DNA of 64,000 nt from Escherichia coli (GTDB lineage: Bacteria; Pseudomonadota; Gammaproteobacteria; Enterobacterales; Enterobacteriaceae): assembly GCF_045037415.1 (NCBI RefSeq), contig NZ_CP173438.1, one strand, 5' to 3'. The position numbers and the translations under genes are program-made. The notes under the pieces were generated by a model. It was not told where the DNA came from and did not search any database. It saw nothing but the letters and a program-made list of their open reading frames with translations. Of the stretch, positions 18,272 through 20,161 are shown piece after piece. Each line of letters starts with the position of its first letter. Within the stretch, counting starts at the first letter, position 1.

Positions 18272-20161
18272 ATGGCTGAATTCGAAACCACTTTTGCAGA
18301 TCTGGGCCTGAAGGCTCCTATCCTTGAAGCCCTTAACGATCTGGGTTACGAAAAACCATCTCCAATTCAGGCAGAGTGTATTCCACATCTGCTGAATGGC
18401 CGCGACGTTCTGGGTATGGCCCAGACGGGGAGCGGAAAAACTGCAGCATTCTCTTTACCTCTGCTGCAGAATCTTGATCCTGAGCTGAAAGCACCACAGA
18501 TTCTGGTGCTGGCACCGACCCGCGAACTGGCGGTACAGGTTGCTGAAGCAATGACGGATTTCTCTAAACACATGCGCGGCGTAAACGTGGTTGCCCTGTA
18601 CGGCGGCCAACGTTATGACGTGCAATTACGCGCCCTGCGTCAGGGGCCGCAGATCGTTGTCGGTACACCGGGCCGTCTGCTGGACCACCTGAAACGTGGC
18701 ACTCTGGACCTCTCTAAACTGAGCGGTCTGGTTCTGGATGAAGCTGACGAAATGCTGCGCATGGGCTTCATCGAAGACGTTGAAACCATTATGGCGCAGA
18801 TCCCGGAAGGTCATCAGACCGCTCTGTTCTCTGCAACCATGCCGGAAGCGATTCGTCGCATTACCCGCCGCTTTATGAAAGAGCCGCAGGAAGTGCGCAT
18901 TCAGTCCAGCGTGACTACCCGTCCTGACATCAGCCAGAGCTACTGGACTGTCTGGGGTATGCGTAAAAACGAAGCACTGGTACGTTTCCTGGAAGCGGAA
19001 GATTTTGATGCGGCGATTATCTTCGTTCGTACCAAAAACGCGACTCTGGAAGTGGCAGAAGCTCTTGAGCGTAACGGCTACAACAGCGCCGCGCTGAACG
19101 GTGACATGAACCAGGCGCTGCGTGAGCAGACACTGGAACGCCTGAAAGATGGTCGTCTGGACATCCTGATTGCGACCGACGTTGCAGCCCGTGGCCTGGA
19201 CGTTGAGCGTATCAGCCTGGTGGTTAACTACGATATCCCGATGGATTCTGAGTCTTACGTTCACCGTATCGGTCGTACCGGTCGTGCAGGTCGTGCTGGT
19301 CGTGCACTGCTGTTCGTTGAGAACCGTGAGCGTCGTCTGCTGCGCAACATCGAACGCACCATGAAGCTGACCATTCCGGAAGTAGAACTGCCGAACGCAG
19401 AACTGCTGGGCAAACGTCGTCTGGAAAAATTTGCCGCTAAAGTACAGCAGCAGCTGGAAAGCAGCGATCTGGATCAATACCGTGCACTGCTGAGCAAAAT
19501 TCAGCCGACTGCCGAAGGTGAAGAGCTGGATCTCGAAACTCTGGCAGCCGCACTACTGAAAATGGCACAGGGTGAACGTACTCTGATTGTTCCGCCAGAT
19601 GCGCCGATGCGTCCGAAACGTGAATTCCGTGACCGTGATGACCGTGGTCCGCGCGATCGTAACGACCGTGGCCCGCGTGGCGACCGTGAAGATCGTCCGC
19701 GTCGCGAACGTCGTGATGTTGGCGATATGCAGTTGTACCGTATTGAAGTGGGCCGCGATGATGGTGTTGAAGTTCGTCATATCGTTGGCGCGATTGCTAA
19801 CGAAGGCGACATCAGCAGCCGTTACATCGGTAACATCAAGCTGTTTGCTTCTCACTCCACCATCGAACTGCCGAAAGGTATGCCGGGTGAAGTGCTGCAA
19901 CACTTTACGCGTACTCGCATTCTCAACAAGCCAATGAACATGCAGTTACTGGGCGATGCACAGCCGCATACTGGCGGTGAGCGTCGTGGCGGTGGTCGTG
20001 GTTTCGGTGGCGAACGTCGTGAAGGCGGTCGTAACTTCAGCGGTGAACGCCGTGAAGGTGGCCGTGGTGATGGGCGTCGTTTTAGCGGCGAACGTCGTGA
20101 AGGCCGCGCACCGCGTCGTGATGACTCTACCGGTCGTCGTCGTTTCGGTGGTGATGCGTAA
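18272..20161 (+). CDS. deaD: cold-shock DEAD-box ATP-dependent RNA helicase DeaD/CsdA
   Basis: ORF 18206..20161; ATG at 18272 gives 629 aa [33 protein letters not shown]...; motifs GSGKT, DEAD, SAT; C-terminal RG-rich repeats. Confidence 0.95.

Follow-up and report, generated by a model that had tools for sequence, protein, structure and literature searches.

A predicted disordered tail of four degenerate repeats and near-constant net charge at the C-terminus of Escherichia coli DeaD

At its 3′ end, deaD (csdA), the gene of a cold-shock DEAD-box RNA helicase in a stretch of 64,000 nucleotides (nt) of Escherichia coli DNA (RefSeq assembly GCF_045037415.1, contig NZ_CP173438.1; the window), encodes a tail of four old, degenerate peptide repeats, predicted to be disordered, which probably acts as a non-specific, multivalent electrostatic arm. 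The coding sequence lies at 18272..20161 on the + strand (629 amino acids (aa) and a stop codon; reading frame and translation, Pfam domains and the annotation of identical E. coli records), with the tail, residues 568–629, at 19973..20158 on the same strand, as delimited by a Pfam match and an AlphaFold2 (AF2) model. Length alleles of the tail, all in frame, exist among E. coli strains, and net charge is nearly the same in tails of many lengths across species. Taken as a feature, the tail is ordinary: it is already catalogued as a disordered region, and RNA helicases with Gly/Arg-rich tails are well known.

Repeat units and predicted disorder of the tail

The four units follow one another head to tail on the + strand: unit 1 at 19973..20005 (33 nt, 11 aa), unit 2 at 20006..20038 (33 nt, 11 aa), unit 3 at 20039..20083 (45 nt, 15 aa) and unit 4 at 20084..20146 (63 nt, 21 aa), each parsed in frame, unit 1 resting also on Tandem Repeats Finder (TRF) and a direct-repeat search; the residues GGDA (20147..20158, + strand) and the stop codon follow unit 4. 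Every unit opens with [G/S]GERR and closes in F, in the degenerate pattern [G/S]GERR[E/G]G..R...F, with GERREGGR(N/G) exact in two of them and GERRGGGRG and GERREGRAP standing in the remaining two. An earlier note, written from the letters of the window and a list of its open reading frames (ORFs), had described repeated GERREGGR-type units at the DeaD C-terminus, and these are real; the peptide string quoted there is the exact translation of the tail. The interval assigned to them, 19960–20161, does cover the tail, but starts 13 nt upstream of unit 1 and off the codon boundary, and the 23-nt DNA consensus said to be repeated has four approximate copies but a single exact match, at 20009–20031 in unit 2, the other three carrying 2, 3 and 4 mismatches at 20042, 20087 and 19976, respectively.

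The same note named an absence of periodicity on formal analysis as its refutation; such analysis finds periodicity present though loose. TRF reports a period of 33 with 2.9 copies, 70% matches and a score of 99 at 19974–20068, thus supplying the head-to-tail copies that mark a coding tandem repeat, and in-frame DNA autocorrelation peaks at lags of 33, 45, 66 and 78 (z = 2.2–2.4 each, against codon shuffles). Repeated peptide 5-mers amount to 11 pairs; when the 62 residues were shuffled with their composition preserved, 3 of 20,000 shuffles reached that number, so that the repeat exceeds what composition alone gives. No exact direct repeat in the tail is longer than the 18-nt GGCGAACGTCGTGAAGGC, at 20009–20026 and 20087–20104 on the + strand (spacing 78). 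Of 41 cases in which two units have an identical residue, 24 (58.5%) also agree in the codon; because this falls inside the 55–67% expected from the codon usage of the gene, the DNA similarity is that of a peptide repeat written with a strong CGT/GGT/GAA bias, and recent duplication or gene conversion is rejected on the same figure. Synonymous sites are therefore randomised between units, from which it follows that the duplication is old and that selection has preserved the peptide. The tail repeat is thus real, loose and mainly a matter of the peptide.

A signal at the level of the nucleic acid, whether an mRNA structure, a regulatory element or an ORF in the +1 frame (19956–20171) or on the minus strand (19852–20184), has next to no probability as an explanation of the repeats. 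Both alternative frames are indeed open across the tail, but they spell poly-Val or Pro/Ser/Arg strings, a mechanical by-product of the CGT/GGT codons, and the +1 reading occurs in databases only as frameshifted deaD fragments; these alternative-frame and antisense ORFs are rejected as products of CGT/GGT periodicity. The RNA fold has a z-score of −1.14, with 22 of 200 shuffles folding equally well, and a search of 17000–21000 against Rfam returned no match, on which two results an mRNA structure or known RNA family is likewise rejected. Many database fragments are frameshifted to the +1 frame, where a poly-Val string ends in ...VVMRNHR and terminates 10 nt past the true stop; since this frame is open, a frameshift anywhere in the tail would replace its basic sequence by a hydrophobic one about as long.

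Pfam places the domains of DeaD in the order DEAD (30–196), Helicase_C (232–340), DeaD_dimer (374–443), DbpA (489–558) and DeaD_C (568–629). Residues 568–629 match PF12343, DeaD_C, over profile positions 1–62 of 62 with 45.6 bits (cutoff 23.3; E = 9.2e-12), and because the match is full-length the feature is already known: the tail is a member of the catalogued family ‘DeaD helicase C-terminal disordered region’, as its score above the gathering threshold, its placement at the extreme C-terminus after DbpA and its predicted disorder all indicate. The 62 residues comprise 20 G, 19 R, 7 E, 4 D, 4 F and 3 S, for a net charge of +8, with the aromatics at positions 578, 589, 604 and 625; the composition is that of stickers (19 R and 4 F) with G and S interspersed as spacers. 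The RG-rich, low-complexity tail of the earlier note is borne out by this composition (32% G, 31% R), by the family match and by the predicted disorder. In the AF2 model, built from a 30-sequence alignment, residues 564–629 are predicted to be disordered, with a predicted local distance difference test score (pLDDT) of 42–46 and no secondary structure, and the preceding RNA recognition motif (RRM) is modelled at pLDDT 69–84 with a beta-alpha-beta-beta-alpha-beta fold. This DbpA-type, RRM-like RNA-binding domain is encoded at 19736..19945 on the + strand (residues 489–558; PF03880, E = 1.3e-20). Protein Data Bank chains matching DeaD at E < 1e-20 span residues 6–210 and 218–445 only. Between DeaD_dimer and the RRM lies an R/D-rich linker (19601..19735, + strand; residues 444–488), a second low-complexity repeat with DRGPR motifs, identified as a direct-repeat family and by TRF at a period of 9.

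Length variation and net charge

Tail length was compared among strains, as the earlier note had proposed, by aligning a 236-nt query that spans the tail to 5,425 complete genomes of E. coli. Query coverage was at least 80% in 5,423 genomes and identity at least 95%, which admits no indel of 12 nt or more, in 5,260; about 97% keep a DeaD of 629 aa. Strain length polymorphism, the other mark of a coding tandem repeat, is nonetheless present in the form of four alleles. The +12 nt allele, which adds REGG, was first met in strain F374 and is carried by strains including 042 and PCN033; it duplicates GTCGTGAAGG(C/T)G between two copies of the 5-nt direct repeat GTCGT (20016–20020 and 20028–20032, + strand, spacing 12; alignment with F374) and yields a protein of 633 aa (WP_001306022.1). 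It occurs in about 3% of the genomes (161 at least 99% identical to the allele and 26 more at 95–99%, hence approximately 161–187 of 5,425), and since its two copies differ at one synonymous site it is an old, lineage-wide allele. The +15 nt allele of CUVET21-424 repeats TGGCGGTGAGCGTCG perfectly in tandem between TGGCGGTG octamers, giving GGERR twice and a protein of 634 aa, and the +30 nt allele of CFIAFB20180511 gives GGERR three times and 639 aa; the 8-nt direct repeat TGGCGGTG at this expansion site lies at 19972–19979 and 19987–19994 on the + strand (spacing 15; CUVET21-424 alignment and CFIAFB20180511 sequence). In the urinary isolate FXCREC035, finally, a −132 nt allele removes 44 residues, including most of the four units, to leave a protein of 585 aa and a deaD annotated at 1758 nt, with end points at the 8-nt direct repeat GCGTCGTG (19981–19988 and 20113–20120, + strand, spacing 132; FXCREC035 alignment). 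One genome other than FXCREC035 also aligns to less than 80% of the tail query. With the −132 allele as query, a wild-type genome aligns at 100% in two pieces that join up, so that no carrier count is drawn from that search; the +15 allele behaves in the same way as a query, and its search nonetheless revealed the +30 allele. These natural alleles (+REGG in the lineage with 042, GGERR twice or three times, and the 44-residue deletion) are ready-made material for work on the function of the tail.

Because every allele sits between short direct repeats, which is its signature, slipped-strand mispairing is the likely origin of all four, each being in frame and bounded by direct repeats of 5–8 nt. 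As to kind, then, the earlier note was right to expect copy-number change from the DNA repeats, with four natural in-frame length alleles in E. coli and tails of 56–82 aa across species, but the change is rare, its substrate is a set of micro-repeats at spacings of 12, 15 and 132 nt and never the 33-nt unit, and the DNA of the units is no more alike than the peptide repeat and codon usage predict. A hypermutable contingency locus that often switches the properties of DeaD would account for the GGERR tandem of one, two and three copies among strains, but is scarcely credible here: the units are degenerate, with 70% matches, and share at most 18 nt exactly, alleles beyond the lineage-wide +12 are confirmed or suspected in only five of the 5,425 genomes, and frameshift switching is not seen in complete genomes. 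Units 70% alike, in-frame alleles and a single length in about 97% of genomes are not the profile of a phase-variable locus.

Beyond E. coli, one scan of species-representative genomes with a degenerate GERREGGR pattern recovered the deaD tails of 31 other species, mostly Enterobacteriaceae, or 32 sequences with E. coli. In these the tail measures 56–82 aa and holds 3–5 ERR cores. The RRM segment is 75 aa long without exception in 34 sequences (E. coli and 33 other species), at a mean identity to E. coli of 97.6%, and aromatic residues number 2–5 in 33 of 34 tails from E. coli and other species. The R/D-rich linker varies from 50 to 71 aa across the 32 sequences, with a net charge that is always +2 or +3; a 221-nt stretch over it falls below 95% identity in 11 of the 5,425 E. 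coli genomes, which may indicate indels. A protein search with the last 145 aa listed 120 matches, all of 79–253 aa and many frameshifted, which were used for their tails and not for full-length statistics; such database fragments add tails from Klebsiella, Serratia, Yersinia-like bacteria, Pantoea, Hafnia, Plesiomonas and Proteus, together with K-rich, apparently Pasteurellaceae-like tails, of which Testudinibacter is the one named. Modules of the same kinds come back in these tails: a REGG insertion appears independently in another genus, and Klebsiella and Citrobacter have a duplicated APRRDD.

Throughout the 32 sequences the net charge of the tail is +8 or +9, with 17–24 basic and 8–15 acidic residues, the two counts climbing with tail length at near-equal slopes (0.217 and 0.206 per aa). 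Among 82 tails of 38–89 aa (10–24 basic and 5–15 acidic residues), 71 carry +8 or +9, and the standard deviation of net charge is 1.07 against approximately 5.4 expected under a simple null model that assigns charges by composition; for 13 tails sharing <50% identity, a non-redundant subset, the corresponding values are 2.2 and 5.1 (P ~6e-4). The constraint is not absolute, a single outlier of +3 being the 38-aa tail of a compost metagenome. Within E. coli, +REGG, the sole allele to have spread, is charge-neutral, and the singleton alleles shift net charge to +9, +10 and +1. In a literature search, neither the PF12343 accession nor the conservation of charge in tails of bacterial DEAD-box proteins brought up anything relevant. 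Near-constancy of net charge is a previously unreported regularity, and a mildly new one.

It is very improbable that the tail is neutral low-complexity sequence, thrown up and kept by replication slippage and GC-rich codon bias alone. Slippage products do exist, a strain without most of the tail is viable and tail length varies between species, all of which neutrality would accommodate, but it would leave unexplained the single length kept by most of the surveyed genomes, the strong under-dispersion of net charge and the in-frame nature of every observed indel. The three tail differences between the window and K-12 (GGG/GGT, GCA/GCT and GAC/GAT) are likewise all synonymous by alignment inspection, and the randomisation of synonymous sites between units while the peptide is kept bespeaks purifying selection over the long term.

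Constancy of charge across a two-fold range of length and across unalignable sequences leads to a specific hypothesis, in which the dose of charge, and not the number of repeats, is what matters. The selected property may be the net charge itself (~+8 to +9 on each chain and ~+16 to +18 on each dimer), rather than sequence, length or the number of repeats; it would stay the same across Enterobacterales and beyond, with repeat gain or loss tolerated only if charge-neutral, as for REGG and APRRDD, or compensated, and with the linker behaving alike at +2/+3; this is advanced tentatively, as a reading that falls a little short of probable. If true, it would provide a clean, genetically tractable bacterial case of selection on a bulk property of a disordered region, with net charge tied directly to RNA tethering by the helicase and to condensate thresholds, and it bears on non-specific RNA binding and condensate formation by bacterial DEAD-box helicases.

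Proposed function of the tail and its genomic setting

We infer an electrostatic role for the tail, in RNA tethering, annealing or condensates, a role that fits a net charge nearly constant whatever the length or repeat number. The repeats, each an acidic–basic core (GERREGGR) ending in F, together yield some 19 R and four evenly spaced aromatics separated by glycine, an arm that could hold RNA near the helicase dimer, aid strand annealing and contribute to the salt-sensitive RNA–protein condensates of DeaD; selection would then act on total positive charge and on the R/F stickers, and not on exact sequence or copy number. The ATP-independent annealing activity of CsdA has been proposed to have its seat in the basic C-terminal region (PMC3590231), and the full-length protein gives liquid condensates in vitro that are sensitive to salt, as well as foci in cells (PMC12758526); no tail-deletion data on DeaD condensate formation were found in the articles consulted. 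GERREGGR also occurs in low-complexity R/E/G-rich regions of RNA proteins from distant phyla, ten Pfam-tested examples being all RNA-related: the hosts include DEAD-box helicases (Globicatella, Dyadobacter), RNase E (Variovorax, Limnohabitans) and PNPase (a Bacteroidetes metagenome-assembled genome, Pedococcus), and further ribosomal protein uS3, an RluB-like pseudouridine synthase and Jag.

Several points weigh against an electrostatic arm. The ten octapeptide examples were picked by eye from low-complexity contexts and are a biased sample, and the charge statistic draws on related sequences, a simple null model and a non-redundant set of 13. A regular-expression scan of the tail recovered one RGG, three RG and one di-RG (RGGGRG), and no tri-RGG, di-RGG or tri-RG; an RGG/RG box is said to have been defined by Thandapani et al. 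in 2013 through these last three arrangements, with spacers of 0–4 residues. A canonical box, which needs at least two RGG or at least three RG with such spacers, is thus rejected. FXCREC035 lacks 44 of the 62 tail residues, and the tail is therefore dispensable for viability. No experiment isolating residues 568–629 was found in the articles consulted. Turner et al. reportedly described in 2007 a CsdA truncated at residue 444 that supports growth at 25 °C and not at 15 °C, a truncation that does not isolate the tail, because linker, RRM and tail go together. In the summary of Xu et al. 2017 given by one article, the folded RRM is the major RNA anchor, and a construct without the C-terminal tail keeps raised ATPase and unwinding activity in vitro (PMC11850223), so that, on that summary, the tail would be unneeded for core activity in vitro. 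The RNA-binding extension put forward in the earlier note accordingly fares in two ways: it would fit the constant positive charge and the recurrence of the octapeptide in RNA enzymes, but must contend with a folded domain named as the main anchor.

The tail might instead be mainly a protein-interaction or autoregulatory module, which would dock DeaD onto RNase E of the cold degradosome or onto the pre-50S particle, or would bend back to contact acidic or RNA-binding surfaces on the helicase and so tune its activity, by way of its alternating E and R; this is considered unlikely. Conservation of the mixed-charge ERRE cores would suit such a module, as would the interaction of the disordered tail of Pseudomonas aeruginosa RhlE2 with RNase E (PMC11260450) and the ability of DeaD to replace RhlB in the cold degradosome (PMC3590241), and a tail-less construct that, in the summarised account, is no less active in vitro (PMC11850223) would fit a regulatory over a catalytic role. 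However, no partner-specific linear motif is conserved, the tails of Plesiomonas and Proteus and the K-rich Pasteurellaceae-like tails sharing charge and composition only, and the octapeptide recurs on unrelated RNA enzymes in phyla without such partners. A non-specific electrostatic arm, indifferent to the exact sequence of the tail, remains the preferred reading.

The identity of the gene is secure. A 561-nt stretch around the tail is 100% identical to E. coli SK1144 and 97.5% identical to K-12, and is matched in 5,425 of 5,426 complete E. coli genomes, always annotated deaD; one genome of the 5,426 has no match to this 3′ region at all. Local gene order is pnp, nlpI, yrbN, deaD, mtr, yhbW, and identity together with the nlpI–yrbN–deaD–mtr synteny marks the gene as the DeaD/CsdA orthologue. 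Upstream, RefSeq annotates yrbN (26 aa) at ~18199–18279, sharing 8 nt with the start of deaD, and the mechanical ORF list lengthens deaD to a TTG at 18206. Downstream lies the intrinsic terminator of deaD (20204..20238, + strand), an inverted repeat with a 9-bp stem including 6 G–C pairs and a 7-nt loop, followed by a T run; the hairpin scores on the minus strand too. After the deaD stop, TGTAAAATAATATATACA and GTACTCATGTACTGGTACAGT, at 20189–20206 and 20244–20265, flank the terminator region, and we presume a resemblance to the TyrR box and the TrpR operator of the promoter region of mtr (tryptophan permease).

Comparison with known systems

The closest relative is PF12343 itself, whose members stand at the same position after DbpA and differ structurally in nothing. 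The family description gives name and position only, and the repeat anatomy, the length alleles among strains and the constancy of charge noted here are additions to it.

The RGG/RG domains of eukaryotic DEAD-box helicases and RNA-binding proteins, such as LAF-1, DDX4 and Ded1/DDX3, likewise combine Gly/Arg-rich, disordered sequence and scattered aromatics with a DEAD-box core that forms RNA-dependent condensates. The tail of DeaD differs in its GGR/ERR motif, in being ~18% acidic and in its length of 62 aa. Arginine methylation regulates eukaryotic RGG boxes, and to our knowledge it has not been described for DeaD. LAF-1 is cited in the account of DeaD condensates (PMC12758526). Arginine-rich RNA-binding segments of RNase E offer a further parallel, with similar stretches in the C-terminal halves of the Variovorax and Limnohabitans enzymes, but such segments are supplied in trans by a partner protein, whereas the tail of DeaD is in cis on the helicase.

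Within the dimeric Hera/CshA/CsdA subfamily, the basic tail of Hera is short and not known to be repeat-built, and residues after the RRM of Thermus thermophilus Hera are said, in work of 2013 by Steimer et al., to contribute to RNA binding. The core, dimerisation domain and RRM-type domain are shared across the subfamily, but the RNA-binding domain of CsdA contacts RNA via other residues than that of Hera (PMC11850223). P. aeruginosa RhlE1 and RhlE2 are alike in bearing basic, disordered C-terminal extensions on bacterial DEAD-box helicases, although they belong to another helicase subfamily, have no RRM or dimerisation domain before the tail and are unrelated to the DeaD tail in sequence (PMC11260450). 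The RhlE extensions were shown to promote the binding of RNA, to enhance unwinding and to bring about phase separation (PMC11260450), and are the best experimental analogue for the way in which the tail of DeaD probably acts.

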